Positions 4,561 to 27,060 are shown, counted from the first letter of the stretch. The stretch is DNA of 32,000 nucleotides from an uncultured Dehalococcoidia bacterium (GCA_964588665.1 CAZPQQ010000007.1:1-32000); one strand, 5' to 3'. The notes: generated from the letters alone by a model not told the origin. A program made the numbers and translations.

Positions 4561-4616
4561 CGACCTTCCGCGTTGCCGCTTGAATTCGTGACTCTGTACA
4601 CCGGTGACGCTCAACA

Positions 4617-5738: not shown

Positions 5739-5822
5739 GACTATGTTCCCTCCGTTGGCGGCGACTTTGACTGTCTTCTGCTGATGTTCGAGGCGCGTCT
5801 GTCACATGGCGGGTTGGTTCGC

Positions 5823-5989: not shown

Positions 5990-6040
5990 CAGGCCTCCGC
6001 CTCCCTGCTATTCGCCGAAGAACTTCCGACTCAGCGCACC

Positions 6041-7039
6041 TTAGTCGTATGCCGCGACGATCTCCTCTTCCACTCGCTGGAAGGCTTCGACGTCGCCTGT
6101 AGGGATGCCTCCGAACATGATCTCGTCGACTCCGGCGTCTGCGAACTCGCCGATTCGTTCGATGATGTAGTCGCGCGGGCCAGCCAGCGAGCCTGACTCT
6201 TTCGGCTCCATCAGCGGCCCCGCATAGTTGCCGTGAAGGCGGTCCATCGCTCTGTATCCGCGCGCTTCGTTGTAGCGTTCAGCCTCGGCCTTGTCGTCGG
6301 TGATCAGCAGCGGCGCCAGCAGCGTGCGCTTGATCTCCGCCGGGTCGCGGCCCACGGCTTCGCAGTGCCGTTCGAGCACGCCCATCTTGTGCTGGTACAG
6401 CTCCATCGACATGCCTCGGCCCGACCAGCCGTCCAGGTTGAAGATGTCGCCGTGCATCGCCAGCGTCCGCATGGTGCGTTGCTCGCCCGTACCGCCGATG
6501 AGGATCGGAATGTGAGGCTCTTGATAGCTGCCGGGCGACAGCGGCGCTTCGTCGAGCTGGTAGTAGCGACCGTTGTAACTGACCGCGCCCTCGGCGGTGA
6601 AGAGCTTGCGGATGAGCTCGCACGCTTCCTCGAACCTGTCCGACCGCTCCTTCATCGGAGGGAAGTCCCATCCGAATGCCTCGTGCTCTCGCTGGAACCA
6701 GGCCGCGCCAAGCGCCAGGACGAAACGTCCCTTGGACGCCTGGTCGAGCGTGGCGGCCATCTTCGCGACCAACGCCGGATTGCGGTACGTGTTGCCGAGC
6801 ACCAGGTGGCCGAGGACGAGCTTGTCCGTCATGCCGGCGGCCACCGCCGTGAGCGTGTAGCCCTCGAACGCAGTGCCGAGTTCCTGCTCGCGGTCCCCAC
6901 CTGGAGAACCCGGTGAAGGCGGCAAAAAGTGGTCGGCGAACCACAGGCTGTCCCATCGCCCGGCCTCCAACGCCTCGATCGAGGCGCGGATGTCGTCCCA
7001 TGTCGTTCTGTAGCAACTAACCTGAACTCCGAATTTCAT
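6041..7039 (-). CDS. LLM-class F420/flavin-dependent oxidoreductase
   Basis: MKFGVQVS...WDSLWFADHF start and LGAAWFQREHEAFGW motif, typical of the F420-dependent LLM subfamilies. Length 332 aa. Confidence 0.85.
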   Translation of the reverse strand: MKFGVQVSCYRTTWDDIRASIEALEAGRWDSLWFADHFLPPSPGSPGGDREQELGTAFEGYTLTAVAAGMTDKLVLGHLVLGNTYRNPALVAKMAATLDQASKGRFVLALGAAWFQREHEAFGWDFPPMKERSDRFEEACELIRKLFTAEGAVSYNGRYYQLDEAPLSPGSYQEPHIPILIGGTGEQRTMRTLAMHGDIFNLDGWSGRGMSMELYQHKMGVLERHCEAVGRDPAEIKRTLLAPLLITDDKAEAERYNEARGYRAMDRLHGNYAGPLMEPKESGSLAGPRDYIIERIGEFADAGVDEIMFGGIPTGDVEAFQRVEEEIVAAYD

Positions 7040-7353: not shown

Positions 7354-8697
7354 ATGGCACTATCTGACGGCGCCGAAACCGAAGAGGTGACCGGCGACGC
7401 TAGTCAGCCGCGAGTCCCGCGAATCCCCTGGATCGGCGACAAGCTGTTCTACGGTTGGGTCGTCGTTTTCGTTGGCGCGGCGACCCAGTTTTTGCAGGGC
7501 ACAATCAACCAGGGCTTCACGACGTACCTCGGGCCGCTGCAGCGTGATTTCGGCTGGAGCAGGGCGGTCCTCGCCGGGCCTCGTTCGATCACTTCGGTCC
7601 AGAACTCGATCTTTGGACCGGTCGAAGGTTATTTGATGGACAGGTTCGGGCCCCGCATCATGTCCGTCACCGGTGTCTTCATCATGGGTTTCGGACTCAT
7701 TTTGTTCGGCCTGACGAACTCGCTGTGGATGTACTATCTGGCCAACGTCGTCATCGCGTTGGGCACCGGGTTCTACGGCATGTTGATCATGTCCGTGGCA
7801 GTCAACAACTGGTTCCGGCGCAAGCGAACGATCGCTCAATCCGTGATGCTTCTCGGCTGGTCGCTGGCCGGGGTGGTAGGGGTTCCGGCGGTGGTCCTAG
7901 TGCAGGCAGCGTTCGGGTGGGAGGTGTCCGCGATCGGCTCCGGCTTGATCATCTGGGCCGTGGGCATCCCGACCTCGATGCTGCTGCGCACCAAGCCGGA
8001 GCCATACAGATTGCTGCCGGACGGCGATACCAACACCGCCGAAGCCACGGTCGCCGCCGGCCGAAACCCCGTCGACGCGGAGCACGACTTCACCCTTCGG
8101 GAAGCCGTTCGGACCCGCACGTTCTGGTTCATTTCGGTTGGCTCGGCCATCGGCAACCTTGGCATGGGAACGGCGCAGATCCACCTCTTCCTTCACCTCG
8201 AACAAGGCGTTGGGTTGGAGCGAACGACCGCGGCGCTCGTGTGGACGGTCGCCAGCCTCTCGAACATCCCAGCACGGCTGGCCGCGGGCTTCTTGGGAGA
8301 CCGATTGCCCAAGAACCATCTGATGGGATTCGCCATAACGATGATGGCGATTTCGGTCCTCGTCCTCGGCGTCGCGACCACAGCGCAGATGGCATTCGTA
8401 TACGCCGTACTCTACGGAATCGGCTGGGGTGTCCGGACGCCGGTCATGAACGCGATGCAGGGAGAGTACTTTGGCCGGACTTCCTTGGGCGTCATCAGCG
8501 GATGGCTCCAATCGCTCAGCCTTCCGTTGACCATCGCTGCGCCGGTTCTCGCGGGTTACGTGGCGGACGTTCAAGACAGTTACCGCACCACGTTCATCGT
8601 CGTGTCGATCCTGATGATGGCGGGGGCCGCGCTCATGTTCATGGCGGCTCGTCCCGCGCCTCCGAAGCGACTGGAGCAGGGCTCATCGGCCGCCTGA
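7354..8697 (+). CDS. MFS transporter (oxalate/formate-antiporter-like / monocarboxylate-type)
   Basis: About 12 hydrophobic segments split by a central hydrophilic loop (RTKPEPYRLLPDGDTNTAEA...). The FYGWVVVF..ATQF start and the loop-2/3-like MDRFGPR motif are typical of MFS_1. Confidence 0.85.
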   Translation: MALSDGAETEEVTGDASQPRVPRIPWIGDKLFYGWVVVFVGAATQFLQGTINQGFTTYLGPLQRDFGWSRAVLAGPRSITSVQNSIFGPVEGYLMDRFGPRIMSVTGVFIMGFGLILFGLTNSLWMYYLANVVIALGTGFYGMLIMSVAVNNWFRRKRTIAQSVMLLGWSLAGVVGVPAVVLVQAAFGWEVSAIGSGLIIWAVGIPTSMLLRTKPEPYRLLPDGDTNTAEATVAAGRNPVDAEHDFTLREAVRTRTFWFISVGSAIGNLGMGTAQIHLFLHLEQGVGLERTTAALVWTVASLSNIPARLAAGFLGDRLPKNHLMGFAITMMAISVLVLGVATTAQMAFVYAVLYGIGWGVRTPVMNAMQGEYFGRTSLGVISGWLQSLSLPLTIAAPVLAGYVADVQDSYRTTFIVVSILMMAGAALMFMAARPAPPKRLEQGSSAA

Positions 8698-8803
8698 CTG
8701 GAACGGACGGAGTTTGGGTGGGCTGGAAAAGCCGTATCAACTGTGCAAGCGCGTACTCACCGAAAAGCATCCGGATTGGCTGCCTGAGTAGGCCGAGGTT
8801 GCC

Positions 8804-11800
8804 TCAGGGCAGGCTGCGACCGATCCATCGGGTGTTGTACTCCCGCAGATACTCCTGGCGCTGCTGATCGTCGGGATAGGACTCCTGATCCGTGTACGGA
8901 TAGCTCGACATGTCATGGAAGGGAAGCGGGGCCACGGTGGAGCCGTAGGCCGTGTCGGCCCACATGTCCTTAACGTACCCGTCGACGTACACGAGGAAGT
9001 CGCGCGTCCATCCCTGGGGCAGCGGACCTGCTTCGTCGGCTGAGAAGCTTATGGCGATCTCCTCGCCGTGGTGCATGATCACGTACTGGTCGTCGGGCGC
9101 GTCCAGCAGCGGCGTGACCTCCCCGTACCTCGTATAGTACCCCGCCTGGTCGCCAAACGGCGCCGAGTCGTTGGGTTGGTCGTAGAGGAACACGGGCGGG
9201 TTGTTGCCGTCCGGCAGATGAAGCTTCGGGTAGCCTCTCCAGCGCAGATCGGCTTGTTCGGGCTTCAACGTAGTGATGTTCACCGCCGCGGCATCGGTCG
9301 CCGTGCTCACCCTGATTCTATCCCAGTAGACCTCCATGTTGGTCGCAATCCTGACGCGGTAGTCATCGGACAGGAACACGCCGGTCAGATCCACGGTCAT
9401 CGTCTTGGGCAGGCCGGCTGGGAAGCCCAGGTCCTCGACAACCGTGACCCATCGGCCTTCGTCATCGCCCCATACCTGGAGGATCGGCGCCTGCAGGTTG
9501 ATCCCGTCATCCAAGGCTTGCCGCACGCTTTCCGAGTTCCAGTACTCTATCCAGCTGTCCATGAGCAGCAGGACTCTTTCGGCGCCGGAGAGGTCTCCGA
9601 GGTCGAGAACGACAGAGTGTGATTTGGCAATTCCTTGGTACGGGAGGAGTTGAAACGTCGGATAAGTCCGGTCGAATTCGCTTATCGCCGGAAGGATGTC
9701 TCGCCCGCCGCCGTCCACTGCCGTCACGGGCAGCCTGGCGTCGCCCGTGACGTGGACCTCGAACTCGGGGAACGGCGGGCCCATCTTCAGCACCTCGTTG
9801 GGGTGGACCTCCGTGCCCGAAGGATGGTCCACCACGAGCAATCGGACCTGATCGATGTAGCTGACTTCCTCGAGTTGCTCGGTGATCCTGATCGTGTATT
9901 TCCCGTCTCGCTCCTGCAACAGGCGCCCGTCGACTTTGACGTACTCGTCGGAGTCGGGCTGATAGTAGGTGTCCGGTCCGACAAGGATGCCGATGAAACC
10001 GGCGCCCAGGAAATCGGTGATGAACGCGTATCCTTCCCCGTCCCAGGTGTAGAGCAGCGGACAGGACGACTTTCGGCCCTGCTCCGTGATGGTCAGCGCG
10101 CGGTTCACGGCGACATCGTTGGGCCGCTGCCGAAGCCCGCTGGGCCAAAGAACGTGAACCATCCCGATCTGCTGTTGATCGCCGAGGCCGAATAGCAGAT
10201 TGGGGCTGTTTTGAGACAGGTACCCCGATCCGCCGGACACCTCTCTCTTCTGCCGGCGTCCTCCCGTCTTGACCTCCACTTTGCTGCCGAGACCCATGCG
10301 GTTGCTGCCGTCGCCTACCGTCGTCACCTTGAGCCACGTGTTTCGGGCGCCGCCTTCGTTTTCCAACAGCATGGGGCTGGCGCCATTGCGGACGATAAAA
10401 GCGTCCACATCCCCGTCGTCGTCGTAGTCGCCCAAAGTCAGTCCACGTCCGCCGGCGCCGCCCACGCCCTGTAGTCCGACATCGGCCGTTGCGTCGATGA
10501 AACCTCCGTCGCCGAGGTTCCGGTAGAGCACAACCGCGCCCTCGGATTGGTCGACCACCAACATGACATCTAGATAACCGTCGTTGTCGTAATCGACAAA
10601 GGAGGCACCCCAGGCTCGACGGTCCTCGCCCGCCGCTGCCGCCTGCTGGAAGGATGCGTCGACGGCGAATGAGCCGTTGCCGAGGTTGCTGAGCAGCGAC
10701 ACACCGTTCGTCGTCCCGGAGTTGACTAGCAAGTCGACGAAGCTGTCGCCGTTATAGTCGCCGGCCGCCACGCCTCGGGATGCGGTCACACCCGATAATC
10801 CCGCTTCGGCAGTGACATCGGCAAAACTGCCGTCCCGGTTGTTGCTGTACAAGACGCCGGGCTGTCCGTCGGCGCCAACATAGAGGTCAGAGTCGTTGTC
10901 GCCGTCGAAGTCTAGGAACACTGCCGTGACGCTTCTGCCGATGCCGTCTAGTCCGGCTTCGGCCGTCATGTCGACGAAGGCGCCATCGCCTGTGTTGCGG
11001 TAGAGAATGTTGCGTTGGCCAGGCAGCTCTTGCGGGAATCGAACCGTGGCTCCGCCGGCCATTCCCTGTGCATCGACGTAGTTGGCGACAAACAGGTCGA
11101 GGAAGCCGTCGTGATCGTAATCCACGAATGTGGCGCCCATGCCGAAGCCCGCGGCGTCGATGCCCGCCTCGACCGTGATGTCGGTGAAGGTCCCGTCGCC
11201 GTCGTTGCGGAAGAGGACGTCGGGCCCGAAGTTCGTGACGTACAGGTCGGGGTCGAGATCGTTGTCGAAATCTCCGAAGGCGACGCCCATCCCCTGCCCT
11301 GGATGGCCGACGCCTGCCTGGCTCGTGACGTCGGCGAAGGTCCCGTTTCCTTCGTTGCGATAGAGGGCGTTGCCGGATGACGCCTCGGTCGGGCCGGCGT
11401 TCACGACGTAGAGGTCGAGGAGTCCGTCTCCGTCGAAGTCCAGAAAGGCGGCGCCTGAGCCGTAGTACGGGGCAACGTGTTCGCGTAGGTACCGTGGGTC
11501 CGACGCAATGCGCTGACCGGGCTCGAACTCAGGGTGTAGCGCGGCGCCGTGAACGACCTCAATCCCCGATTCAGCGGTGACGTCGGCGAACCGCACTCCT
11601 ATGCCAGTCGATGCTGTAGCCGCGTCGCTCGGCCCATCGGGGTCCTCGACTGCCAAGGCGTATCTGCCTTCCTCGAGGTATACGCGTTGGCCGATCTCGT
11701 CGGCGCTTCTTCGGATGACGAACTTGTTGTAGGTGAGCATCTCGTTCAAGCCGCGCTTCTCGTCGCCGGCCTGTAGGAGGATCAGTCCCAAATTGTAGTG

Positions 11801-12340
11801 CGCCGCAGCTAGGGAACCGTCCACCTGAATGGCCTTCTCCAGCCGCTCTCTCGCCTCGGGGATTCTTCCGGTGTCGAAGTAGATCTTCCCGAGATAATAG
11901 TTGGTGTATGCATCGTTGGGGTCCACCCGCAGGACCTCGTTGAAGCGCTCGATAGCGGCCGCCTCTTGCCCCTGCAGAAGATCGAGTCGAGCCAGAACAT
12001 AGTTCAGATGAACGTTGTCGGGATCGAGCCCCTCGACCGAGCTCAGCGCCTGACGCGCCCTCTCGTCGGCCCCCGTGTGAAAGTAGGCTATTCCCAGGTT
12101 GACTCGGCCGTAGACGTATTCAGGGTCAAGCTCCACGGCCTTTTGAAACTCCTCGACGGCGTCGTTGAGCTGGCCCATTTGCATCAGGTTGATTCCGCGC
12201 ACGTTGTGGATGCGAAGCTGGTCGGCCTTATCCGGCACCGCATCTCGAAAGACGACGACGTAGACGCCGACCACGATTCCGGCCAACGCAACGATCGCGG
12301 CCAGCGCGATGTCTCTTTTCGATACGTCGATCATCTGCAC
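8804..12340 (-). CDS. Membrane-anchored TPR + FG-GAP/VCBS propeller + ASPIC/UnbV (CRTAC1-family) protein with a 420-aa unassigned C-terminal region
   Basis: N-terminal TM segment (IALAAIVALAGIVVGVYVVVF), TPR-like helices at about aa 40-200, and seven Ca-binding-type motifs (FLDFDGDGLLDLYV ... LGDYDDDGDVDAFI). The ASPIC/UnbV signature is NTWLKV...GLGSKVEV...SGGSGYLSQNSPNLLFGLG. Start is GTG 12340 or ATG 12334, 31 nt downstream of the preceding gene. Confidence 0.85.
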   Translation of the reverse strand: MQMIDVSKRDIALAAIVALAGIVVGVYVVVFRDAVPDKADQLRIHNVRGINLMQMGQLNDAVEEFQKAVELDPEYVYGRVNLGIAYFHTGADERARQALSSVEGLDPDNVHLNYVLARLDLLQGQEAAAIERFNEVLRVDPNDAYTNYYLGKIYFDTGRIPEARERLEKAIQVDGSLAAAHYNLGLILLQAGDEKRGLNEMLTYNKFVIRRSADEIGQRVYLEEGRYALAVEDPDGPSDAATASTGIGVRFADVTAESGIEVVHGAALHPEFEPGQRIASDPRYLREHVAPYYGSGAAFLDFDGDGLLDLYVVNAGPTEASSGNALYRNEGNGTFADVTSQAGVGHPGQGMGVAFGDFDNDLDPDLYVTNFGPDVLFRNDGDGTFTDITVEAGIDAAGFGMGATFVDYDHDGFLDLFVANYVDAQGMAGGATVRFPQELPGQRNILYRNTGDGAFVDMTAEAGLDGIGRSVTAVFLDFDGDNDSDLYVGADGQPGVLYSNNRDGSFADVTAEAGLSGVTASRGVAAGDYNGDSFVDLLVNSGTTNGVSLLSNLGNGSFAVDASFQQAAAAGEDRRAWGASFVDYDNDGYLDVMLVVDQSEGAVVLYRNLGDGGFIDATADVGLQGVGGAGGRGLTLGDYDDDGDVDAFIVRNGASPMLLENEGGARNTWLKVTTVGDGSNRMGLGSKVEVKTGGRRQKREVSGGSGYLSQNSPNLLFGLGDQQQIGMVHVLWPSGLRQRPNDVAVNRALTITEQGRKSSCPLLYTWDGEGYAFITDFLGAGFIGILVGPDTYYQPDSDEYVKVDGRLLQERDGKYTIRITEQLEEVSYIDQVRLLVVDHPSGTEVHPNEVLKMGPPFPEFEVHVTGDARLPVTAVDGGGRDILPAISEFDRTYPTFQLLPYQGIAKSHSVVLDLGDLSGAERVLLLMDSWIEYWNSESVRQALDDGINLQAPILQVWGDDEGRWVTVVEDLGFPAGLPKTMTVDLTGVFLSDDYRVRIATNMEVYWDRIRVSTATDAAAVNITTLKPEQADLRWRGYPKLHLPDGNNPPVFLYDQPNDSAPFGDQAGYYTRYGEVTPLLDAPDDQYVIMHHGEEIAISFSADEAGPLPQGWTRDFLVYVDGYVKDMWADTAYGSTVAPLPFHDMSSYPYTDQESYPDDQQRQEYLREYNTRWIGRSLP

Positions 12341-12371
12341 GGGCCTCTCGCTCCGGCGGCGACTGTCGCTA

Positions 12372-14126
12372 TCATTGCCGCTCCTTGGACACGGTCAGGA
12401 TCTGGTTGGCGTCGACGCGACTCAGGGTCTGCAGCTCTCCGTCAGGCCAACGGATCTCGACCGAATCGACGAACTCGTTTTCGCCCAGTCCGAAGTGCAC
12501 CCGGGTGTCGTTCATGGACAGGTAGCTGGAGCCAGCGACCACCGTCGTCTGCTGTCTTGCGCCGCCCGCATTGATCGTCACCGTTGCGCCGATCGCCTGC
12601 CTGTTGCCCGCGTCGCCTTTGAGATTGAGGACGAGCCACTTCCCCGCGGCGGCGCCGTTGTTCTGCAACAGCTTGACGCCTTCGCCCCGAGCCACAATGA
12701 GAATGTCCAAGTCTCCGTCATTGTCGTAGTCGGCGAAAGACGCGCCTCTGCCTACATCTTTCGTTGCCCACACCTCGCCGGCCACGTCGTTGACGAGGAC
12801 GAAGCCCTCCTCTCCCTTGTTCCGAAAGAGGAGGTTTCGCATTGTGTCGAGCTTTGTCTTGTCTTCGGGCGGCTCAAACGTGCTTCCGTTGACCACGAAC
12901 ACATCCAGGCGGCCGTCGTTGTCATAGTCGATGAAACCGACCCCCCAGCCAACGTAGCTCAACGAGCTCTCGCCCACGTCGGAGGCGATCCGGTCGACGA
13001 ACCTGATCTGATCGTCTATGGATTGGTCGGACATGTTGCGAAACAGTGCGTCGTCCTGAGCGATCCAATGGGTTATCCAGAGGTCCGGGTCCAGGTCGCC
13101 GTCGTAGTCGCCCACCGCGATGCCCATCGATCCCCTGGCGTCGGCGGTTCGGGCGTATTCGGCGACGTTCTCGAACGTGCCGTCCCCGCTGTTGATGAAG
13201 AGGGCGTCAGGGGATATGTCGTTCGCAACGTACAGGTCAGGGAGTCCGTCGGAGTTTAGATCGGCGAAGACAGCTTGCAGGCTGCGGCCCTCCGGATCGG
13301 CCACTCCCGCCGACGACGCCACTTCGGTAAACGTGCCGTCTCCGTCGTTGCGGTAGAGGCGGTTGGCCAGCGGGTCGTAGGAGAACGGATTCAGCGTGAA
13401 GGGGGTGTCGAGGCCGTACTGGCTGTTGAGCAGTGTGGCGGATTCGCCGCTGTCGCGCTGGAACGCTACATACTGGGGCACGTAGAGGTCGAGGTCGCCG
13501 TCGAGGTCGTAGTCGGCCACGGTCGATCCGGCAGGCCAGCCGCCCTCGATCGACAGGCCGCTCTCCACCGTAACGTCTTCGAAGACACCGGCGCCTTCGT
13601 TGCTGTAGAGCTTTTGCCAGCCGAACCCGGTCGTAAACAGGTCGATGTCGCCGTCGCCGTCGTGATCGAACCACACCGCGCCCATCCCCAGTCCCGTCTG
13701 CCTGATGTCAGAAGCCTCGGTCACGTCCTCGAAGGCGCCGTCGCCGAGGTTTCTGAAGAGCTTGCCCCGATCCATCGGGCGTTGACCCTGCTCGTCGCGC
13801 GAGCTGTTGACGATGAACAGATCGACGAAGCCGTCGGCGTCGTAATCTCCCCACGCTGCCCCGGACCCCATGTCTTCTGTCAGGACCGACGTCCTCACGT
13901 CGTTGAAGTGACTGAAGACAATGCCTGCCTCAGAGGTCACGTCGACAAACTGAACGCCGGCATCCTCGCTCCGAACGCTCCGTTGTTCGTCGGGCACGAA
14001 TCCCGGCGCCTCTTCCACACCCGACCTACATGCCCCGGCGCCGAACAGCGCAGAGATCGTCAAGGCAACAAGCAAGCCCGGCCCTGCGCATCTATTCACT
14101 CTCGCCAATTGCGAAGAATCTCCCAT
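12372..14126 (-). CDS. CRTAC1-family protein (FG-GAP/VCBS propeller + ASPIC/UnbV), secreted or lipoprotein
   Basis: Signal-like N-terminus ending ...ALFGAGAC, and seven DxDxDG-type motifs (WGDYDADGFVDLFI ... FADYDNDGDLDILI). The C-terminal ASPIC/UnbV signature is GKWLVLNL...AIGATVTI...AGSSYLSMNDTRVHFGLG. The ATG at 14126 overlaps the upstream gene by 35 nt. An in-frame GTG at 14099 would reduce the overlap to 8 nt. Confidence 0.85.
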   Translation of the reverse strand: MGDSSQLARVNRCAGPGLLVALTISALFGAGACRSGVEEAPGFVPDEQRSVRSEDAGVQFVDVTSEAGIVFSHFNDVRTSVLTEDMGSGAAWGDYDADGFVDLFIVNSSRDEQGQRPMDRGKLFRNLGDGAFEDVTEASDIRQTGLGMGAVWFDHDGDGDIDLFTTGFGWQKLYSNEGAGVFEDVTVESGLSIEGGWPAGSTVADYDLDGDLDLYVPQYVAFQRDSGESATLLNSQYGLDTPFTLNPFSYDPLANRLYRNDGDGTFTEVASSAGVADPEGRSLQAVFADLNSDGLPDLYVANDISPDALFINSGDGTFENVAEYARTADARGSMGIAVGDYDGDLDPDLWITHWIAQDDALFRNMSDQSIDDQIRFVDRIASDVGESSLSYVGWGVGFIDYDNDGRLDVFVVNGSTFEPPEDKTKLDTMRNLLFRNKGEEGFVLVNDVAGEVWATKDVGRGASFADYDNDGDLDILIVARGEGVKLLQNNGAAAGKWLVLNLKGDAGNRQAIGATVTINAGGARQQTTVVAGSSYLSMNDTRVHFGLGENEFVDSVEIRWPDGELQTLSRVDANQILTVSKERQ

Positions 14127-15432
14127 CCCATGTCCCTACATATATCGTTCCGTCCGAGGCTACCGCCGGCGACGCTTCGATCGCCTGCTCCACGGGCACG
14201 TCTCCCAATCTCGTCTCCCATCTCAATTCACCTTCAAGCGACAGAGCATACAACACCCCGTCCCATCCGCCGAAATAGACAGTGCCGTCGGACACGACCG
14301 CTGGTGAGGATCGAATCCACTGGGAGAGCGGGAACTCCCATTTCCTATCTCCATTCGGCCCGAAGGCGATGAACGGATAGGACGCGACCTGCTGGGGTTG
14401 GCTCGATCCCAACGGGGCCGTTCCTGTCGTGCCAACGTATATGGCGCCGTCACGCCCCAGAGCAGGGGAGGCGAAGACCATGAGTCCTTTGCCGACGGCG
14501 ACAGACCACTTCTCGATCCCGTCCGAGGTCAAAGCGTACAGCTTGCCATCGCCTGAGCCGAAGTAGACGGCGCCGTCCGGGGCAATCGCTGCTGGCGAGT
14601 CTATACGCCCTCCGGTTTCGAAAGACCACTTCAGGGAACCGTCGTGGTTCAGCGCGTAGAATGTCCCGTCGTTGGAGCCCACGTACACGGTCCCGTCCTT
14701 GCCGATGGAGGGCGCCGCCCTGACATAGTCGTCGGTGGGAAAGCTCCATGCTCGGGCGCCATCGGTGGAGAGGGCTTGGAGCGCCCCTCCGTGGTCGCCA
14801 AAGTAGATCGTCCCGTCGCGGGCCATCGCCGGAGATGAGAGCGATACTCGATGCGACAGGTCCTCGGGGTCGTATCGCCAGAGCGGCTGGCCGTCCAGCG
14901 ACACGGCGTGGAAGGCGCCGTCGTATGAGCCGAACAGAACGGAGTCCCCGGAAATCAGCGGCGTCGTCCTGATCGGCGCCGGCGCCTCCACGCTCCATAT
15001 CACCTCTCCGTTGGGGGTCAGGGCAAACAGGCCATGCCCGGACGTCTCGAACCTGTCCCCTTCCGCCGCCACGTATATCGTGCCGTCTTCTCCGATCGAG
15101 GCGCCGGCGAGTATCCGTTCGCCAAGTTTCTTGCTCCACTTGATCGCAGGCGAATCTATGGCAGGGGCTTCGACGCGGTTCGTGTGGAGGCTGTCGTGTC
15201 CGGAAGTACGCCACGCGCCGTCTTCGGGTTGAATCAGGCCTGCTTTGTCGAGGTCTGGATCGGGGGTCGCCAGACTCGCCGGGCTGGAAGTAGGCTGCGA
15301 CTCGCCACAGCCCGTCGTCAATGAAACCAGGACGAACAGCGCTGCGAGAATACCCAGGATCCGGGCATTCTGGGCGCCACGGCTCTCGGAGAAAATCGCC
15401 GTTACCCTACGTCGGCACGGGGCTGTCATCAC
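14092..15432 (-). CDS. PQQ-like beta-propeller repeat lipoprotein (BamB-fold)
   Basis: Lipobox LVSLTTGC after a hydrophobic signal, then repeated DGTIYV/DGAVYFGS.DG.LYAL...G...W units typical of PQQ-like (PF13360-type) propellers. Confidence 0.8.
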   Translation of the reverse strand: MMTAPCRRRVTAIFSESRGAQNARILGILAALFVLVSLTTGCGESQPTSSPASLATPDPDLDKAGLIQPEDGAWRTSGHDSLHTNRVEAPAIDSPAIKWSKKLGERILAGASIGEDGTIYVAAEGDRFETSGHGLFALTPNGEVIWSVEAPAPIRTTPLISGDSVLFGSYDGAFHAVSLDGQPLWRYDPEDLSHRVSLSSPAMARDGTIYFGDHGGALQALSTDGARAWSFPTDDYVRAAPSIGKDGTVYVGSNDGTFYALNHDGSLKWSFETGGRIDSPAAIAPDGAVYFGSGDGKLYALTSDGIEKWSVAVGKGLMVFASPALGRDGAIYVGTTGTAPLGSSQPQQVASYPFIAFGPNGDRKWEFPLSQWIRSSPAVVSDGTVYFGGWDGVLYALSLEGELRWETRLGDVPVEQAIEASPAVASDGTIYVGTWDGRFFAIGESE

Positions 15433-15459
15433 ATTCGCATCGTTCAGGTCAGCCCGCCC

Positions 15460-17625
15460 CTACCTGATTTTTCCGGTCTTTTGATTCAGCAACTCGACTT
15501 TGACGGTTGATGACGAGAGGTCGGTAATTGGGAAGGTGAGTCCGCTGTTGTCGGTGGTCACGTCCACGAACTTCTGGTGGAACTTGCGCATCCTCAGGTT
15601 CGCGCTGACGGTGAGAGGCCCCTCAACGTCTTCGGGCACTTCCAGCGTGTAGTCCACCTTTTCCGAGAAGCCCGGGAATATGACCCGCACGTATGTCGTG
15701 CCCACCATGTCCCATAGATTGTGGAGGTAGATGACGTCGCCCTCTTCGTCGATGGGGAACGATCGGAAGTAGTGGGCGTCCGGATCGACATAGTTGTCTT
15801 CGCCCACCCATCCGGAGTGGAACAGCGTCCTGCCGGACGCGTCCACTACCTTGGTTTCGATCCAGGTCTGAATCAGGTCCAGCGGGCCCGTCGGGAACTC
15901 GTGGCCGACTTTTCTGTTGGCGATGACCACGGAGTACTCCAAGGCTTCGGCGGGCTGAACGGACTCGGGGGCGGCGACGTCCGTGGCGACGGCGGGGCCC
16001 TCAAGCCATTTGTCCTGAATCTCCGGCACCAGGTACTCGCCTTTCAGCCATTTCTCGGTCAGCTCCACCTGCTCTTCTTCTCCAAGAAGCCATGGGATCG
16101 CCTGGTTGGCCGCCAGCCATCGATGGTTCCGGTGCTGGCCGGGGTGCGGACCAAAGGGATCGCCTTCGCTCACGCCCGAGCTCGCTTCCTCCACGTTCGG
16201 CGTCAGGGGCATGTGGCACTCGATGCACACGATTGTCTCCGGGCTATCCGGTCCCTGGTTCCACTTGCTCTCTTTCCAGTTGTCCAGTTGGTTCTGGAGC
16301 CTCACCCAGCCGAAGTTGTTGACAGATTCGTCGAGATACTGCTTGTGACAGGTTCCGCAATACTCGGGCAGTTTATAGTGAGCTTTGGAGAGCGATTCTT
16401 TGTGGGTCTGAGGATAGGCTCGAATCAAGAAGCTGCTCAGACGCCCCTTGAGACTGTCCTCGTCTTCCAATTCAAACAGGTACCTCGGCGGAGGGGTGAA
16501 CTCGTAGTTGGCGTTTCCTTTGGAGCCTTGGATCGCCGTTATGCCGTGGCAGACGGTGCAGGAGATTCCTTCTTCGGAGTGCGGGGTCTCTTGTCCCGTC
16601 TTCCCTTGCAGCTCCAGGGCGTCGGCAACTTCGGCTGTCAGACTGCCGGAGAGAATGGATACAGGATTGTGACACCCTCCGCAGTACCTGGTCGATTCGA
16701 TGCCGGTGTCGCCTTCCATCGCGCCGGCCACCGCTTTGAAGAACATGTCGCTGGCAGACCAGGAGTGGGCGCTTGCCTTCCACTCGTCGTAGATGTCCTT
16801 GTGGCACGAGCCGCAGTTCTCGGAGCCCGCCAACACGTCGGCGTTGATCGGGCTTCCTGTGCTGGAGTTGACGTTGCTGGGCAGGAACGGTCCCTGACCG
16901 TACTTGAGTCCGTAATCTTGGACCGGCACACCTGTCGATGCTTCAGGACCCGTGGAAGCGAGAGCGAAGCCGGCTCCGACGACAAGCAATAGGACCGCCA
17001 CGGCCGAGCTTCCTGCCAGCAACCGTCGTTGGGAGCTTCGCAACAAGGGCGCCAACTCCAGCGCCGCACGCCTCCTGACTCTTAGCCATGCCCGCACCAG
17101 GTGCCAGCAAAGGAGCGGCGCCAGGATGAAGCCGCTCCAGGTGTGGACGGTGTCTATCCAGTAGGTGATGCTGGTTCCGAACCACGCCTGCCACGTCAGT
17201 GCCAGTCCACTCGCGGCGCAGACCACGAACATCCAAAAGCTGAGATGCCCGAGAAGCCGGCCCCAGTCAAGGCGCTGCCGCCTTAGAGAGAGGTAGTGTT
17301 TCCAGAGATACCGACTGATGATGGCGCCCGCGACCAGGCCGAGAACGGTGTGGAGCAATACCAGCCATTGGACGGCTTTCCAGGCCCAACCCTGTGACTC
17401 CATGAAATCCGACGGCAACGGGGCGAGATATATTACGAGTCCGCTGAGAATCAGGTAGAGCAGAAGCCCGATTGCCAATGCAAGCAGCTTCGACGCCCAG
17501 CGGCGAGCACCCCCGTCAGGATTCTTCAACGAAGGGTTCACCTGAAGCCTCGTCGCCTCGTCGTCGGTCGCCGATGCCAGGTCGCCACTGTTCCGCTTGA
17601 CGCTTTCGAGCCCGTCAGATCGCAC
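15460..17625 (-). CDS. Fusion protein: 5-TM His-rich membrane module (cytochrome b-like / DUF4405-like) + pentaheme c-type cytochrome domain + C-terminal beta-rich domain
   Basis: Five CXXCH motifs verified on the DNA: CGSCH 16801-16815, CGGCH 16669-16683, CTVCH 16546-16560, CGTCH 16345-16359, CIECH 16213-16227. Five hydrophobic helices lie at aa ~46-225, with His92, His127, His161 and His175 inside helices 2-4. A positive N-terminus (RRWASK) puts the heme domain outside the cell. Confidence 0.85.
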   Translation of the reverse strand: MRSDGLESVKRNSGDLASATDDEATRLQVNPSLKNPDGGARRWASKLLALAIGLLLYLILSGLVIYLAPLPSDFMESQGWAWKAVQWLVLLHTVLGLVAGAIISRYLWKHYLSLRRQRLDWGRLLGHLSFWMFVVCAASGLALTWQAWFGTSITYWIDTVHTWSGFILAPLLCWHLVRAWLRVRRRAALELAPLLRSSQRRLLAGSSAVAVLLLVVGAGFALASTGPEASTGVPVQDYGLKYGQGPFLPSNVNSSTGSPINADVLAGSENCGSCHKDIYDEWKASAHSWSASDMFFKAVAGAMEGDTGIESTRYCGGCHNPVSILSGSLTAEVADALELQGKTGQETPHSEEGISCTVCHGITAIQGSKGNANYEFTPPPRYLFELEDEDSLKGRLSSFLIRAYPQTHKESLSKAHYKLPEYCGTCHKQYLDESVNNFGWVRLQNQLDNWKESKWNQGPDSPETIVCIECHMPLTPNVEEASSGVSEGDPFGPHPGQHRNHRWLAANQAIPWLLGEEEQVELTEKWLKGEYLVPEIQDKWLEGPAVATDVAAPESVQPAEALEYSVVIANRKVGHEFPTGPLDLIQTWIETKVVDASGRTLFHSGWVGEDNYVDPDAHYFRSFPIDEEGDVIYLHNLWDMVGTTYVRVIFPGFSEKVDYTLEVPEDVEGPLTVSANLRMRKFHQKFVDVTTDNSGLTFPITDLSSSTVKVELLNQKTGKIR

Positions 17626-17934
17626 TCGTAACTCCGGATCGATGAGCCGCAGCCGTCAGGCATGGTCGGCCTCGCATCGATCACCTTCCGATTCGGTTGC
17701 ATGCATGATACCTTGCTCGGCGGTCAACTCTCCACTGCCGGAGCGTCAGGTCTGCCGCATGGGCGCCCACGCGCCTGGCAGCCGAGGGTCAGTCAGCGAT
17801 TGGCGCAAACTGGGCTCCAGCACTTATGATGAGTATGAGCGTGTCTGTCGGCTTCCTCAGCGGTGTGCGGCGCCGCGATGACCGCGCATGCAAGCTTTAC
17901 GATCTATCGTCGCCGATGGCGAACATAAAGAAGT

Positions 17935-19332
17935 ATGTGGATGAATACATCCTGCCGGATATGCGGACAAGAGAACTCCGCTGAAGCTCAATATTGCTCT
18001 AACTGTAGATCTCGACTGGCCACGGGTGACAGCTCGGGCGGAGAGACGGCGGCGACGAGACGAATCGGGTTTCTCGCGGGCGCGAGGCGCAGACATCTGA
18101 CCCTCTGGAGCATGGCCGTTGCGATCGTACTTGTCACGGGCGGTTGGATCGGCTACGCGAACCTAGCCTCGGCTCGTTCTTTTCCTCCTCCATCCTCAGA
18201 CGTCAGCTCCGCCCCGGTGGCGGGAGACTGGCCCATGGTCCAGCGAGAACCGGCTCATTCGGCGTTCGTCACCGAGAGCGGCGCCGAGTTGACGGGCAAC
18301 GTGAAGTGGCGCTTCGAAATCGACGCGCCCATCTTTTCGTCGCCTGCCGCCGTTGGGGATCGTTTGTACTTGAGCACCGGAGACAAAAGAATCTTGGCTC
18401 TCGACGCCGCCTCCGGCGACCTGCTCTGGGAGCACACCGTACTCGGCCCGGTGAACTCGTCGCCTGCCGTTGCCGGCGATCTCGTCTACGTCGGGCTCCG
18501 AGATGGCAGGGTGATTGCGTTGAGCCGGGAAACGGGTGAGAAACGGTGGGAATTCCAGACCGCCGACCTCGTTTATTCCTCGCCAGCCGTGTTCGAGGGG
18601 GTTGTTTACATCGGTTCGTGGGATGGCCGATTGTACGCACTGGACGCTGTCACCGGAGAGGAGCGCTGGAATTATCTGACTGGCGGTCACATCACATCAG
18701 ATCCTGCCGTGAACCAGGAAGTGACCGCGGTGATATCACAGGACTGGTACCTCAATCTGATAGACCTCGCCACCGGAAAGCATCGCCTGGATTTCAGGCT
18801 TGCCTCTGTCAGCGGATCGCCCACAATCCATGAAGACCTCGTTTTCGTGTCGGACGAACGCGGGGTTGTCAGAGCGATAGACTGGCAGGAACGTGAAGCT
18901 CGATTCGAGAAGCTTTCCCGTCGTCTGAAGACTCAGCTTTTCGCTTTCGGCCTTACGGATTCCCTTCCATCGTCAAAGGGATTCGTCTGGGGATTCAGAA
19001 AGCCAGGTGAGCGTTTCGTAGGCACACCCGCAGTGGCAAACGAAAAGGTCTATGCAGGCTCAGCCTCCGGAAACGTCTACGCGCTGGAGGAGTTCACCGG
19101 AGAACTGGTCTGGAGTTTTGCCGGGGAATCCAGCATAACGAGTTCGCCGTCAGTGGTTGGCCAGACGGTCTTCGTCGGAGATGAGAGCGGCCGCCTGTAT
19201 TCCATCGACGCACTCACCGGAGACTTGCGGTGGGAATTCGTGGCTGACGATTCCATTTCCTCCACGCCGGTTGTCGCCAACAAGACGCTGTATGTCTCTT
19301 CCCTGAGCGGGACCCTCTACGCCATCGAGTAG
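17935..19332 (+). CDS. Zinc-ribbon / single-TM / PQQ-like beta-propeller protein
   Basis: N-terminal CRIC-x10-CSNC (Cys7, 10, 21, 24) zinc ribbon, a TM segment LTLWSMAVAIVLVTGGWIGYANL, then repeated SSPAV.GD.VYVG..DGR.YALD..TGE..W propeller blades. Confidence 0.8.
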   Translation: MWMNTSCRICGQENSAEAQYCSNCRSRLATGDSSGGETAATRRIGFLAGARRRHLTLWSMAVAIVLVTGGWIGYANLASARSFPPPSSDVSSAPVAGDWPMVQREPAHSAFVTESGAELTGNVKWRFEIDAPIFSSPAAVGDRLYLSTGDKRILALDAASGDLLWEHTVLGPVNSSPAVAGDLVYVGLRDGRVIALSRETGEKRWEFQTADLVYSSPAVFEGVVYIGSWDGRLYALDAVTGEERWNYLTGGHITSDPAVNQEVTAVISQDWYLNLIDLATGKHRLDFRLASVSGSPTIHEDLVFVSDERGVVRAIDWQEREARFEKLSRRLKTQLFAFGLTDSLPSSKGFVWGFRKPGERFVGTPAVANEKVYAGSASGNVYALEEFTGELVWSFAGESSITSSPSVVGQTVFVGDESGRLYSIDALTGDLRWEFVADDSISSTPVVANKTLYVSSLSGTLYAIE

Positions 19333-19445
19333 CGTCAGAGCTCGATAACATGGGCACCGGCATATTTTGACTGAAGAGATTAGAAATGTGGCTGGCTCTC
19401 GCGTACTCGGGCCCGACTAAGCTTCGGCGTCAGCGTGTTTTCGAG

Positions 19446-22319
<2,874 letters not shown>

Positions 22320-22658
22320 GGGGCGCTGCTTCGGTCGGTCCGCATCGGTTTTATGGAAGGTCGCCTTGGGCGATGTGCTTTGCGTTTCAACGCCAGAGAA
22401 AGGGTTGTCCGGGAGCCATCAAACAGACGCAGGGGGCGTTTGCGGGCCAGATTAGGGTATAGGGCCGCCTGGCGTTCTGCGAGCCTCACCCCTGCCCTGT
22501 CGTCTAACGGACAGTGGATGAACATGAAACACGAGGAATGGCGTCCAACATCGAAGAGGAGTGGTGCGTCGACAGATCCGCACGTCTCAGGCGAATCGAG
22601 AAAGGCATGCCCGACGCACACGACCGCACGAAGCGCGCCGAGCGCCGCCTAACGACAA

Positions 22659-22702
22659 GGGAGGGGGTGCAGCGATCATTGTTGATCGCCATACCCCCTC
22701 CC
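22659..22702 (-). terminator. Strong GC-rich hairpin downstream of the ABC binding-protein gene (candidate intrinsic terminator)
   Basis: gggagggggt (22659-22668) pairs perfectly with accccctccc (22693-22702), and an inner gcgatca/tgatcgc stem extends it. It lies 32 nt after the stop at 22734. On the minus strand it is followed by TTGTCGTT, which is only weakly T-rich. Confidence 0.55.
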
Positions 22703-22733
22703 GCTAATTACGTCTTATCCGTTGCCGGGGGAA

Positions 22734-24686
22734 CTAGTCCCTGAATCCGGTCTCATCTTCCCTGAGGTCCTGGTCAACCCAGACGTACGCCCACCTGGAA
22801 GAGTAGTCCACGAATGCGAGGACGCGCTCTCCGTTGTGGTTCTTCAGCCAAGGCTGCCAGTAGTCGCCACCCAGGCCCGCGGGGGTCTGGACGGAGGCCG
22901 CCAACTCGAGGAATTTGCTGGAGGCTGCTTTAATCAGGCGCGCCTGCTCTTCTGAGTCGGTGGCCGTGAGAACGTCCTCCCACATCTGGTTGTACTCGGG
23001 GTCGTTCAGGTTCGACCGGTTCCACTGGTGGCCTACCCTGAAGTCGTTAAGAGCGTTCGGGCGACCGGTAACGTTGTTCGCGAAGAAGTCGAACTGCTTC
23101 TCGAACAGTCTGCTCTGCAGGACCGGGCCGTCGACGGGCTCCATGGTTACCTTGACGCCGATGTCGTCCCAGAATCCGATCGAAATCTCGGCTGCTTCGA
23201 TCTGCATCTGGTTGGAGTTTGAGATCAGCAGGTCAATCTCGAATCGCGTGCCGTCCGAACCTCTGGTCAGGCCGGCTTCATCCAGAAGCGCTTCCGCTCC
23301 GTCTGGATTGTATACGTGGTAGTCCTGCACCGATTGCGGCTGCATGGACAGATCTTCGTAGTGCAACGGCCATTCGGGCTGGAGCGGGAATGCCAGCATG
23401 ACGGAATCGCCCTCGAACAGCGCCCTCGTGTAGACGTCTCGGTCGATGGCCATGTTCATGGCGACGCGAACCTTGAGGTCGTCGAAGGGAGGCTTGTTCA
23501 TCGGCATGAAGTAGCCGAAGGAGTCTTCCATAGCCAGGGCTCGACCCAACTCAGGGTTGGATTCTTCCAAAGTTGGCCTGTCTGACGCACGAACGCGCAT
23601 CAGCTCGTCAATCTGTCCCGTTCGGAGGGCAGCCAGTCGTGTGGCTTCCTGAGGGATGATGACCTGAGTGACGCCGTCCAGGAATGGAATCTGATATTCC
23701 GTCCCGTCGAACGTATATTTGCCCCAGTAGTCGGGGTTCTTTTCGTGTTCGATAGTGCTGCCAGCGGTGTAGCCCTTGACCATCCAAGGTCCGGTGCCTG
23801 AGTGGTTCATCGGTTCGTCGGTGCCCAGTTCAATTGTCTCAGGAGCGTCGGCGATCAGATAAGGTCCCCAAGCGAACTCGTAGCCCCAGAAGGAGATGGG
23901 CTTATTGGTGTGGTACGTGACTGTGTCGTTGACTCCGTCGCCGTCTGAGTCGTCACTGGAGACGCTGTCCACGAAGTCGTGTCGGGGCCAGCGGCATTCG
24001 ATGACGCGCTGTGCATCGGCCGTGAGTTCGTCAGCAGTAACAGCCCTACCGAAGGTGGGATGTCTGTTCTGCCATTTGATGCCTTCGCGCAGGTGGAAGC
24101 TGTATGTCAGAGGATCGGGAACTTCCCAACGGTCTGCCAGCGCGCCAGTCGCAAGCTTGTCGGTTCCGATTCCGAGCCTCGGCTGGAACGTCGTCAGGCC
24201 TTGGCCTGATGGTCCCAGATCGTAGTCCCCGATCAGGAAGTTTTCCACCGAGAAGCTAAGTTGTGTCTGCGCTTTGAATTCGCACATGTCCCATTTTGCG
24301 CCCGGATCGGACCCAAGAGCCACCCTCAACGTTCCGCCATATTCCGGGCCGCCTGTCGTCTCAACGACTTTCGCCGTTGTCTGCAGTTGTACCGGAGATG
24401 TCGAGACTCCTGCTACAGCAGGGACCGCAGTGGGCGCCGCTGGCGCTGCGGGCGCCGCTGGCGCTGCTGGCGCTGGAGCGGCCGGGGCTGCTGCAGGGGC
24501 CGGCGCGGGAGCTGGCGCTGCGGGAGCTGGCGCTGCGGGAGCTGGTGCTGCAGCAGGCGCGGGCGCCGCGGGCGCGGGAGCGGCTTCTTCGTCGTCCGAC
24601 GAACATGCAGCCAGAACCAGAGCGGCGATCATCGCAACGACCACCAGTCCGATCCAGGACCTAAATCTACGATTGTTATTCAACAC
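22734..24686 (-). CDS. ABC transporter substrate-binding lipoprotein, family 5 (peptide/nickel, DppA/OppA-like) with a long Pro/Ala linker
   Basis: Lipobox ALVLAAC, about 58 aa of (P/A) low complexity, then an SBP_bac_5-like body (GGTLRVAL..., NPDYWG, PFDDLKVR.A...AIDR). Preferred start is the GTG at 24686, preceded by GGAGG with a 5-nt spacer. The track start is the GTG at 24698. Confidence 0.9.
   Translation of the reverse strand: MLNNNRRFRSWIGLVVVAMIAALVLAACSSDDEEAAPAPAAPAPAAAPAPAAPAPAAPAPAPAPAAAPAAPAPAAPAAPAAPAAPTAVPAVAGVSTSPVQLQTTAKVVETTGGPEYGGTLRVALGSDPGAKWDMCEFKAQTQLSFSVENFLIGDYDLGPSGQGLTTFQPRLGIGTDKLATGALADRWEVPDPLTYSFHLREGIKWQNRHPTFGRAVTADELTADAQRVIECRWPRHDFVDSVSSDDSDGDGVNDTVTYHTNKPISFWGYEFAWGPYLIADAPETIELGTDEPMNHSGTGPWMVKGYTAGSTIEHEKNPDYWGKYTFDGTEYQIPFLDGVTQVIIPQEATRLAALRTGQIDELMRVRASDRPTLEESNPELGRALAMEDSFGYFMPMNKPPFDDLKVRVAMNMAIDRDVYTRALFEGDSVMLAFPLQPEWPLHYEDLSMQPQSVQDYHVYNPDGAEALLDEAGLTRGSDGTRFEIDLLISNSNQMQIEAAEISIGFWDDIGVKVTMEPVDGPVLQSRLFEKQFDFFANNVTGRPNALNDFRVGHQWNRSNLNDPEYNQMWEDVLTATDSEEQARLIKAASSKFLELAASVQTPAGLGGDYWQPWLKNHNGERVLAFVDYSSRWAYVWVDQDLREDETGFRD
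24411..24584. repeat. GC-rich low-complexity coding repeat (Pro/Ala linker) including three tandem 15-nt units
   Basis: The unit gggagctggcgctgc occurs at 24507-24521 and 24522-36, and with one mismatch at 24537-51. It encodes (PAPAA)-type repeats on the minus strand. Confidence 0.9.
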
Positions 24687-25125
24687 TTTTACCTCCACGG
24701 ATTATGTTAAGTACCTAAACGCCCTTGCGGGCGACCACCTTCGTTCAACCAACGATCGGATTCGGGAAATGTCGAAGATTCTCCCAGTCTTGAATTCGGA
24801 GGCACAGCGCCCTAATCAAGCATTCGGATAGTATAGACCGCTCCTCCTACGGTCGTCAATCTTATTTCGCTCTAAATTCCCTAGTTTTGCCATCTAGCAG
24901 AGAATTACGCCTCAAAGGCCTAATTGGATTTGATCTCTACGAGAATTCGGTGAGAACCTCGCCATCAGAAACCTGGCAACAGCGCCAAGCCCTCACACGC
25001 CTGCCCGGATAGTCGCCCCGAGAACGGGAAGATCCGGCGTCTCGGTGAGCGCATCGCCCCGCAGCCACGCAAGCGCGTCAATGCAACCCTATCGCGACGA
25101 TCGCTGGCGCCTGCGTACGGTGATC

Positions 25126-26064: not shown

Positions 26065-26079
26065 TCTTCCGGTTCTCCT

Positions 26080-27045: not shown

Positions 27046-27060
27046 AGTCCGGTGTTACCC

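Follow-up and report, generated by a model that had tools for sequence, protein, structure and literature searches.

A membrane multihaem cytochrome and a CRTAC1-like propeller protein are encoded by a conserved gene pair in a Dehalococcoidia operon and in other bacterial phyla

Introduction

Bacteria of the Planctomycetota, Acidobacteriota, Gemmatimonadota, Bacteroidota and SAR202 have many propeller proteins of the CRTAC1/ASPIC-UnbV type, to which, to our knowledge, no bacterial function has been assigned. A stretch of DNA of 32,000 nucleotides from an uncultured Dehalococcoidia bacterium (GCA_964588665.1, CAZPQQ010000007.1:1-32000; hereafter the window) carries three genes for such propellers together with two genes for proteins with PQQ-type repeats and one gene for a cytochrome (g1 to g6, positions 8804-22319). 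An initial annotation, made from the sequence alone, had read these six genes as one locus that encodes a candidate cell-surface system. This raises the question of which of the genes belong together and what their products might do at the membrane. The analysis described here indicates that the six genes do not form one system; the genes that do belong together are g4, g3, g2 and g1, a minus-strand operon (17625-8804) that starts with the cytochrome gene.

Results

Four minus-strand genes form a conserved cassette

All six open reading frames (ORFs) were found on the strands and at the coordinates given in the initial annotation, and their coding status is supported by a GC content at third codon positions (GC3) of 0.68-0.80 in the called frames. 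The claim of a single six-gene locus did not hold up against the gene order in relatives, which places g5 and g6 outside the conserved unit. The four genes within it are:

g4, 15460-17625, minus strand: membrane cytochrome of 721 aa, first gene and anchor of the conserved cassette
g3, 14092-15432, minus strand: BamB-like (PQQ_2 repeat) beta-propeller with a lipoprotein-type signal (…SLTTGC)
g2, 12372-14126, minus strand: CRTAC1-like propeller with seven Ca loops, UnbV_ASPIC and a lipobox-like signal (…GAGAC)
g1, 8804-12340, minus strand: N-terminal transmembrane (TM) segment, tetratricopeptide repeats (TPR), CRTAC1-like propeller, UnbV_ASPIC and a C-terminal domain of 428 aa

According to the ORF coordinates, g4 and g3 are separated by 27 nt, g3 and g2 overlap by 35 nt, and g2 and g1 are separated by 31 nt. 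In the relative L001, the BamB-like and the CRTAC1-like gene overlap by 35 nt as well. A scan of positions 8500-22800 for promoters and terminators yielded results at chance level (3 promoter-like sites compared to 2.6 expected from shuffles).

Conservation of gene order, which had been named beforehand as the test that could refute the proposal, proved strongly favourable for the core consisting of the cytochrome, the BamB-like and the CRTAC1-like gene. Dehalococcoidia relatives keep these three genes in this order, in four contexts with 63-75% identity (L001, L004, L094 and L095) and in the 91%-identical L011. The long TPR-CRTAC1 gene is located downstream of the core in the window, L011 and L094 and upstream of it in L001; L004 and L095 lack it. 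The cassette of L095 (63% identity) lies between two same-strand genes for proteins of 810 and 609 aa (positions 402-2834 and 9364-11193), neither of which has a Pfam match. The order in distant relatives is cytochrome, CRTAC1-like protein (~600 aa) and TPR protein. We regard it as nearly certain that the cassette is real.

The CRTAC1-like gene is the near-obligate partner of the cytochrome gene

We sampled 80 loci of the cytochrome family from GTDB, 74 of which had sufficient downstream sequence to identify the next gene. This gene, on the strand of the cytochrome, was CRTAC1-like in 69 of the 74 loci, which belong to many phyla. Of the five exceptions, two have a frameshifted ORF, and the others have a PQQ-type insert, a copy located upstream and a gap of 1.4 kb, respectively. 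The background of CRTAC1-like ORFs was 31 in 551 kb of upstream flank, or 0.056 per kb. At this density, a CRTAC1-like start on the same strand within a few hundred bases of the cytochrome stop would be expected in approximately 2% of the loci, compared to the observed 93%. All-against-all clustering of the ORFs identified the cytochrome and the CRTAC1/TPR proteins as the only families present in all 80 loci, and no other universal neighbour of the cytochrome was found among them; the remaining large clusters overlap the coordinates of the cytochrome or CRTAC1-like genes and look like shadow ORFs. The CRTAC1-like gene is a near-obligate partner of the cytochrome gene, and the pair is almost never separated in bacteria.

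TPR modules are the third recurrent component, either alone or fused to either partner. CRTAC1-TPR fusions occur in L038 and L077 and a TPR-FG-GAP fusion in L006, and in a sister subfamily of the cytochrome, with proteins of 860-1030 aa, a TPR module is fused to the C-terminus. Examples of such cytochrome-TPR proteins are P0323, P0325, P0377, P0290, P0314, P0368 and P0283 as well as the products of L069 (1511-4468) and L079 (1508-4594). In two Gemmatimonadota loci, the cytochrome-TPR fusion stands in tandem, upstream of a g1-type gene and a canonical cytochrome-CRTAC1 pair. Proteins with the architecture of g1 were detected in 20 of the 74 GTDB loci and across phyla, and represent a recurrent accessory component.

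g4 combines a candidate b-haem bundle with a penta-haem c domain

Three parts can be distinguished in the cytochrome:

g4 residues 42-227, 16945-17502, minus strand: five TM helices, candidate di-haem b bundle
g4 residues 260-500, 16126-16848, minus strand: penta-haem c domain with CXXCH motifs at 271, 315, 356, 423 and 467
g4 residues 540-715, 15481-16008, minus strand: Ig-like beta-sandwich stem with the invariant motifs G-H575-[DE]-F-P-T-G-P and R-H635-N-L-W

The five CXXCH motifs and the membrane segments noted initially are present (four or five hydrophobic segments were counted in the sequence), and Pfam matches above the cut-off were obtained for Cytochrome_C554, C7 and MtrC_II-IV. Homologues of g4 have approximately 700 aa, share 38-43% identity with it and cover more than 90% of its length. 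Records with a named source belong to Acidobacteriota, Gemmatimonadota, Bacteroidota, Planctomycetota and Calditrichota, and the GTDB loci extend the family to Elusimicrobiota, KSB1, Latescibacterota, Krumholzibacteriia and Deferrimicrobium. When 1.84 billion representatives were searched with a profile, 852 clusters at 50% identity were assigned to the family (E<=1e-30), and at least 527 matches were found in species-representative genomes, with one genome per species. Among the matches listed, the closest genome match of g4 is Dehalococcoidia bacterium UBA2160.

Invariant residues were called from an alignment of 24 family members. These include all five haem motifs, two histidines on TM2 (H92 and H110) and two on TM4 (H161 and H175), and in addition six histidines outside of the motifs (H287, H408, H498, H501, H575 and H635). 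The positive charges in the loops of g4 indicate five TM helices with the N-terminus inside and the C-terminus outside, which places the c-haem domain outside the cell membrane. With this topology, the pair H92/H161 lies close to the outer face of the membrane and the pair H110/H175 close to the inner one. Their placement matches the expectation for two b haems stacked across the membrane, and we predict haem b binding from this pattern. The four invariant TM2/TM4 histidines together with the five invariant haem motifs lend support to the b/c-type cytochrome fusion proposed in the initial annotation. The TM region resembles DUF4405 below the threshold (22.7 bits, cut-off 26.7, E 1.4e-4), and weak matches to the same family were obtained for 6 of the 24 aligned members.

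In the AlphaFold 2 (AF2) model of g4, the TM helices reach a predicted local distance difference test score (pLDDT) of 80-92 and the C-terminal strands of up to 94. Foldseek matched the C-terminal stem to Ig-like and CARDB folds, and no Pfam family matches this part of the protein. Ten of the 12 cysteines in g4 belong to the five CXXCH motifs and the other two are located in TM helices.

The cytochromes of the Dehalococcoidia clade differ from distant members at two positions. The first c-haem motif (g4 271-275) is CXXCH in the clade and CX4CH (CGTSGCH) in distant members, and the loop between TM1 and TM2 contains an insertion of 11 residues (g4 residues 70-83). These differences occur in the lineage that gained the BamB-like gene and lost the TM anchor of the propeller.

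The partner propeller belongs to a distinct subfamily

FG-GAP_3 was matched in g1, g2 and g6 with E-values of 1e-43 to 4e-48 in five to six stretches each, and UnbV_ASPIC (PF07593) once in each protein (71, 81 and 54 bits, respectively, cut-off 23.4). Residues 232-569 of g2 are homologous to human CRTAC1 (PDB 9etn_A, E 5.1e-20). The seven Ca-binding motifs reported for each of the three proteins can be recovered using the relaxed pattern D-x-[DN]-x-[DN]-x3-[DE], which gives one extra match in g6 (DVDSNPSSD at residue 577); the strict DxDxDG form occurs only 4, 6 and 7 times.

We built a hidden Markov model (HMM) from the cytochrome-adjacent propellers of other phyla. It scored 676 bits for g2, 384 for g1 and 263 for g6. 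Based on these scores, g2 is the orthologue of the cytochrome partner, and the three propellers belong to different subfamilies, which speaks against the earlier idea of paralogous modules acting as an array. Invariant residues of the partner subfamily include, in g2 numbering, H73, R78, E84-D85-M86, Y219, R331, M334, T352-H353-W354-x-A-Q-(E)-(N)-A and N413-G-S-T416 (brackets denote the consensus where g2 differs), and g2 retains most of the invariant residues that mark the subfamily.

The partners of other phyla start with a basic stretch followed by a TM anchor and a conserved juxtamembrane linker. In the Dehalococcoidia clade, a lipoprotein-type signal replaces this anchor. Both g2 and g3 have a cysteine at the end of a signal-like hydrophobic stretch, and this lipobox-type cysteine is kept in their orthologues (the signal of the g3 orthologue in L004 ends with LVGAC), while g1 has a single N-terminal TM segment. 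Tat export of the partner was considered due to an 'RRKR' sequence near the N-terminus and was rejected on inspection, because a hydrophobic stretch of 20-23 residues follows without an S/T-R-R-x-F-L-K or A-x-A pattern; a signal anchor is more likely.

The initial annotation had overlooked a conserved domain at the end of g1:

g1 C-terminal domain, residues 751-1178, 8804-10090, minus strand: conserved all-beta module of 428 aa

No Pfam family matched this domain. It has 332 homologues, and the Pfam domains of these proteins, where present, are FG-GAP and UnbV_ASPIC. The AF2 model of the domain has a pLDDT of 88.4 and a predicted TM-score (pTM) of 0.89. A fold search against the PDB returned only partial jelly-roll and discoidin matches with query-normalised TM-scores of at most 0.21.

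Genes outside the conserved core

Pfam searches upheld the domain calls for FG-GAP_3/UnbV_ASPIC, TPR, PQQ_2, the cytochrome and ArsP_1; PQQ chemistry, which had been read into g3 and g5, was not borne out. Both proteins match only PQQ_2 and Beta-prop_ACSF4 repeat models. The PQQ dehydrogenase models were rejected for g3 and g5 (TIGR03075, 38 and 92 bits with a cut-off of 480; TIGR03074, 48 bits with a cut-off of 833), as was the BamB equivalog TIGR03300 (102 and 172 bits, cut-off 285). To judge from these scores, g3 and g5 appear to be BamB-like in fold only, 'PQQ-like' being the name of a repeat, and g3 is apparently not a quinoprotein. As an insert between the cytochrome and its CRTAC1 partner, g3 is specific to Dehalococcoidia; it occurs in one of the 74 GTDB loci, the near-identical L011. 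The two remaining genes of the proposed system are:

g5, 17935-19332, plus strand: putative Zn-ribbon, TM segment and PQQ_2 propeller, divergent from g4; a neighbour and not a conserved member
g6, 19446-22319, minus strand: ArsP_1 permease fused to a CRTAC1-like propeller

A g5 gene is located beside the cytochrome only in the 91%-identical L011 and is absent upstream of it in L001, L004, L094 and L095. The zinc ribbon, with a CxxC-x12-CxxC pattern in the longer ORF, is weakly similar to DUF7577 (E 1.8e-4). Public gene calls on identical sequence (L097 and L098) start g5 at Met60 inside the TM segment, which results in a protein of 406 aa without the zinc ribbon, and add a separate ORF of 52 aa in another frame near the g5 start (17935-18111). 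The start codon of g5 is uncertain.

The ArsP_1 domain (PF03773) covers residues 94-353 of g6 (51.6 bits, cut-off 32.3). Full-length permease-CRTAC1 fusions of this type form a large SAR202/Dehalococcoidia family, one homologue of which is named 'SAR202 cluster bacterium', and several genomes contain more than one such fusion on the same contig. In L091-L093, the g6 homologues adjoin an SBP_bac_5 and two BPD_transp_1 genes and no cytochrome. L092 matches the order of the window, with genes for a leucine-rich repeat (LRR) protein, two permeases, a substrate-binding protein and the fusion; the LRR proteins are 56% identical. Because of these contexts, g6 goes with the upstream ABC-transporter genes at 22734-27921 and not with the cytochrome cassette. 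Together they look like a second, separate conserved SAR202 unit (19446-27921, minus strand), within which no ATPase gene was seen.

The flanks of the window (1106-7039 and 28836-32000) are rich in SAR202-type catabolic paralogues. They encode a metallo-beta-lactamase-fold protein, a 3-hydroxyisobutyrate-dehydrogenase-like protein, an MR/MLE enolase, two luciferase-like monooxygenases and two CoA_trans subunits. The flanking genes further include an MFS transporter and an Opp/Dpp-type ABC system. Taken with the closest genome match of g4 and the naming of a g6 homologue, they mark the window as part of a SAR202-type Chloroflexota genome. A plus-strand ORF starting at approximately 30860 continues past the end of the window (GC3 0.79). 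A short plus-strand ORF (256-783) with a low GC3 of 0.57 shows weak matches to Kelch and glyoxal-oxidase-like repeats and may be a fragment or pseudogene.

Discussion

A possible quinone-linked redox complex

The reading that we favour, to which we assign an approximately even chance, is that a quinol-linked cytochrome with two b and five c haems (b2c5) and its obligate propeller partner act together at the outer face of the cytoplasmic membrane, with TPR proteins as scaffold. The five TM helices would hold two b haems, one near each face of the membrane, with H92/H161 and H110/H175 as ligands. This bundle, which is followed outside the membrane by a 'cap' with five c haems and a 'stem' with an Ig-like fold, both of the c552/MccSep type described below, would exchange electrons with the menaquinone pool. 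Electrons would cross the membrane between the b haems and the five c haems, toward or from a reaction centred on the propeller, and the module of c haems and Ig-like domain would reduce or oxidise a substrate that is bound, presented or processed by the propeller. The TPR module may hold such a complex together. In the SAR202-type lineage, the propeller would have lost its TM anchor and become a lipoprotein, and the BamB-like lipoprotein g3 would have been added as an adaptor. A more specific and more tentative idea, which we consider clearly less probable, is that the CRTAC1-like propeller binds the substrate or performs catalysis as a subunit of a widespread and so far unrecognised membrane complex, a new class of quinone-linked oxidoreductases in the periplasm or otherwise outside the cytoplasm that is composed of a b2c5 cytochrome, a propeller and TPR proteins. 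The propeller of such a complex might contain a metal cofactor or one derived from the protein itself. This membrane quinol:multihaem module with an unprecedented obligate partner has a fair chance of being a genuinely new enzyme system.

Several observations weigh against this reading. No match to PF01292 (E<=0.01) or to cytochrome b families was obtained for the 24 aligned members, and the assignment of the b haems follows from the histidine pattern and the sub-threshold DUF4405 matches. The haem domain of g4 is poorly modelled by AF2 (pLDDT 30-50), and neither the haem ligation nor the placement of H575 can be read from the model. The six invariant histidines outside of the motifs could give all five c haems bis-histidine ligation; in that case g4 would serve purely as a wire for electrons, in contrast to the catalytic MccSep. 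The propeller has no evident site for a redox cofactor, as g2 contains two cysteines, one of which belongs to the lipobox. Finally, the genes that flank the cassette vary among loci and give no hint of a substrate.

Location and alternative explanations

The likely location of the complex bears on its substrate. In other phyla, the cytochrome and the propeller partner both carry N-terminal membrane anchors. Most of the carrier phyla are regarded as diderm, and Chloroflexota are generally regarded as lacking an outer membrane. Because of the diderm phyla and the inner-membrane anchors on both partners, the complex would face the periplasm in most carriers, which argues against a role at the surface or in adhesion and favours a substrate that is able to reach the periplasm. 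The initial proposal of a cell-surface or adhesion assembly loses ground here, since both partners are membrane-anchored in other phyla and would face the periplasm if those are diderm. In its full form, six proteins would couple electron transfer to an array of ligand-binding propellers, either for adhesion or for extracellular redox chemistry with metals or refractory organic matter as targets. If there is no outer membrane in the present organism, its lipoproteins and TM-anchored parts would indeed face outside; furthermore, the flanks hold SAR202-type catabolic paralogues (luciferase-like monooxygenases, MR/MLE, MFS), and the extra beta-rich domain of g1 is weakly similar to jelly-roll and discoidin folds. 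We nevertheless consider such an assembly unlikely, as the cassette is conserved without g5 and g6, the subfamilies of the three propellers differ, no gene for an outer-membrane porin or cytochrome recurs in the loci, and the carriers are mostly phyla regarded as diderm in which both partners are anchored in the inner membrane. Even further from the evidence is a chance juxtaposition of abundant FG-GAP, PQQ-repeat and TPR paralogues with an unrelated cytochrome. The raw material for it exists, given the 31 CRTAC1-like ORFs in 551 kb of upstream flank and the multiple g6-type fusions per contig in several genomes. However, adjacency at 93% of the loci exceeds the expected ~2%, fusions join the components, and the adjacent propellers form a distinct and highly conserved subfamily. 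Chance is refuted for the core pair and overall next to negligible; it still holds for g5 and, relative to the cytochrome, for g6.

Two further explanations accept the pair and assign a different task to the cytochrome. It could act as a maturase that, like MauG on methylamine dehydrogenase, oxidises residues of the propeller to create a protein-derived cofactor or cross-link, so that the propeller would then be the enzyme. An obligate pairing of this kind would predict the strict one-to-one adjacency, the partner subfamily has invariant aromatic and histidine residues (T-H-W, Y219, Y299, Y535), and c-haem enzymes of a related fold are catalytic. Moreover, CRTAC1 genes sit among hydrazine synthase-related genes, the gamma-like part of which resembles MauG/cytochrome c peroxidase (PMC12758564). 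A transmembrane di-haem b bundle and five haems are, however, not obviously needed for maturation, and no sequence similarity of g4 to MauG or cytochrome c peroxidase was detected, which leaves this possibility improbable. Less probable again is a role in redox sensing or signalling, in which the cytochrome would read the quinone pool or periplasm and relay its redox state to the propeller and the TPR scaffold, which in turn would control another process, for instance envelope assembly. TPR and BamB-like propellers are typical scaffolds, and some loci have regulators upstream (an ECF sigma factor and a Ser/Thr kinase in L008, a sigma-54 activator in L009). Yet these regulators are not conserved across loci, no fused or conserved output domain (kinase, cyclase, DNA-binding) was found in the loci, and seven haems would be a heavy investment for a sensor.

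Significance

The link to a membrane cytochrome provides the first functional lead for the bacterial CRTAC1-like family, and it extends over hundreds of species and more than 10 phyla. Its near-invariance, together with the shared TPR fusions, turns a family of 'hypothetical proteins' into a testable hypothesis of a quinone-linked redox complex built around a seven-haem cytochrome. If the propeller were indeed a subunit of such an enzyme, the ASPIC/UnbV-CRTAC1 family would gain its first biochemical role. The g4 family would also add an uncharacterised branch to the inner-membrane quinol:multihaem modules, with carriers that are major heterotrophs of soil, sediment and the deep ocean. With regard to SAR202, the analysis distinguishes a real conserved operon from look-alike neighbouring paralogues.

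Comparison with known systems

The initial annotation had stated that no characterised system has this composition, and the literature agrees with it as far as our incomplete search goes, in which no published description of a cytochrome-CRTAC1 cassette was found. A porin-cytochrome or Mtr-type conduit is not apparent either; no gene for an outer-membrane porin or outer-membrane cytochrome recurs in the 80 loci, and no second cytochrome or porin is annotated among the flanking genes of the window.

CbcL of Geobacter combines nine c haems with a b domain of the HydC/FdnI type (PF01292). In a similar manner, g4 joins a TM domain with conserved histidine pairs to an extracytoplasmic multihaem c domain in one polypeptide, and its likely role would be to link the quinone pool to extracytoplasmic redox partners. 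What sets g4 apart from CbcL are its five c haems, its Ig-like stem, a CRTAC1-like protein as obligate partner and DUF4405 matches that are only weak. No sequence relationship to CbcL was detected, none of the 24 family members has a PF01292 match, and the resemblance is functional only. CbcL is grouped with CbcA, ImcH, CymA and ActA as inner-membrane quinol:cytochrome c oxidoreductases (PMC11492766).

The soluble part of g4 is related to a different type of cytochrome. It matches the penta-haem cytochrome c552 of Thermochromatium tepidum (5ze8) in sequence (hmmsearch E 6.4e-6) and structure (Foldseek E 4.4e-6). The sequence GHEFPTGP of g4 aligns with PHAMPTGA in the Ig-like domain of c552; this piece is non-significant alone and collinear with the match of the haem domain. 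MccSep/ExtKL of Geobacter (PDB 9wt8), which reduces polysulfide and selenite with a catalytic selenocysteine (Sec) from the Ig-like domain, is also composed of a five-haem cap and an Ig-like stem and forms a periplasmic homotetramer without a membrane domain (bioRxiv 10.1101/2025.11.18.688581). Like c552 and MccSep, g4 has a five-haem helical cap followed by an Ig-like beta-sandwich, with matches to 5ze8 that are significant but weak. Compared to MccSep alone, the full soluble part of g4 reached only an E-value of 1.2 over the first haem motif, the Ig-like loop alone had no match to MccSep or c552, and the NCBIfam model ExtKL (NF040886) scored 31 bits with a cut-off of 250. Unlike MccSep, g4 is membrane-anchored via its five-helix bundle and lacks counterparts of the catalytic Cys239 and Sec325, as it has no cysteine outside of the haem motifs and TM helices; the His/Cys-ligated catalytic haem 2 and the Sec (or Cys) of the Ig-like domain that mark the MccSep family are thus missing. 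On the basis of these comparisons, g4 appears to be a relative of the c552/MccSep fold class and not a member of the MccSep enzyme family.

The propeller partners share the FG-GAP-type Ca-binding propeller and UnbV_ASPIC with vertebrate CRTAC1 (cartilage acidic protein 1). Unlike the vertebrate protein, they are membrane-tethered and genetically locked to a cytochrome; we know of no cytochrome link for CRTAC1. In hydrazine synthase-related clusters of non-anammox Planctomycetota, Acidobacteriota and others, a gene for a 'CRTAC1 family protein' is located between the alpha-like and beta-gamma-like haem/propeller genes (PMC12758564). As in the g4 cassette, a CRTAC1-like gene is part of an operon for c-haem and beta-propeller proteins without an assigned function. 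These clusters differ from it by their HZS-alpha-like, cytochrome c peroxidase-like and c554-type domains, and no membrane b/c fusion is described in that paper. They represent a separate cassette and at the same time the nearest published association of a CRTAC1 protein with cytochromes.

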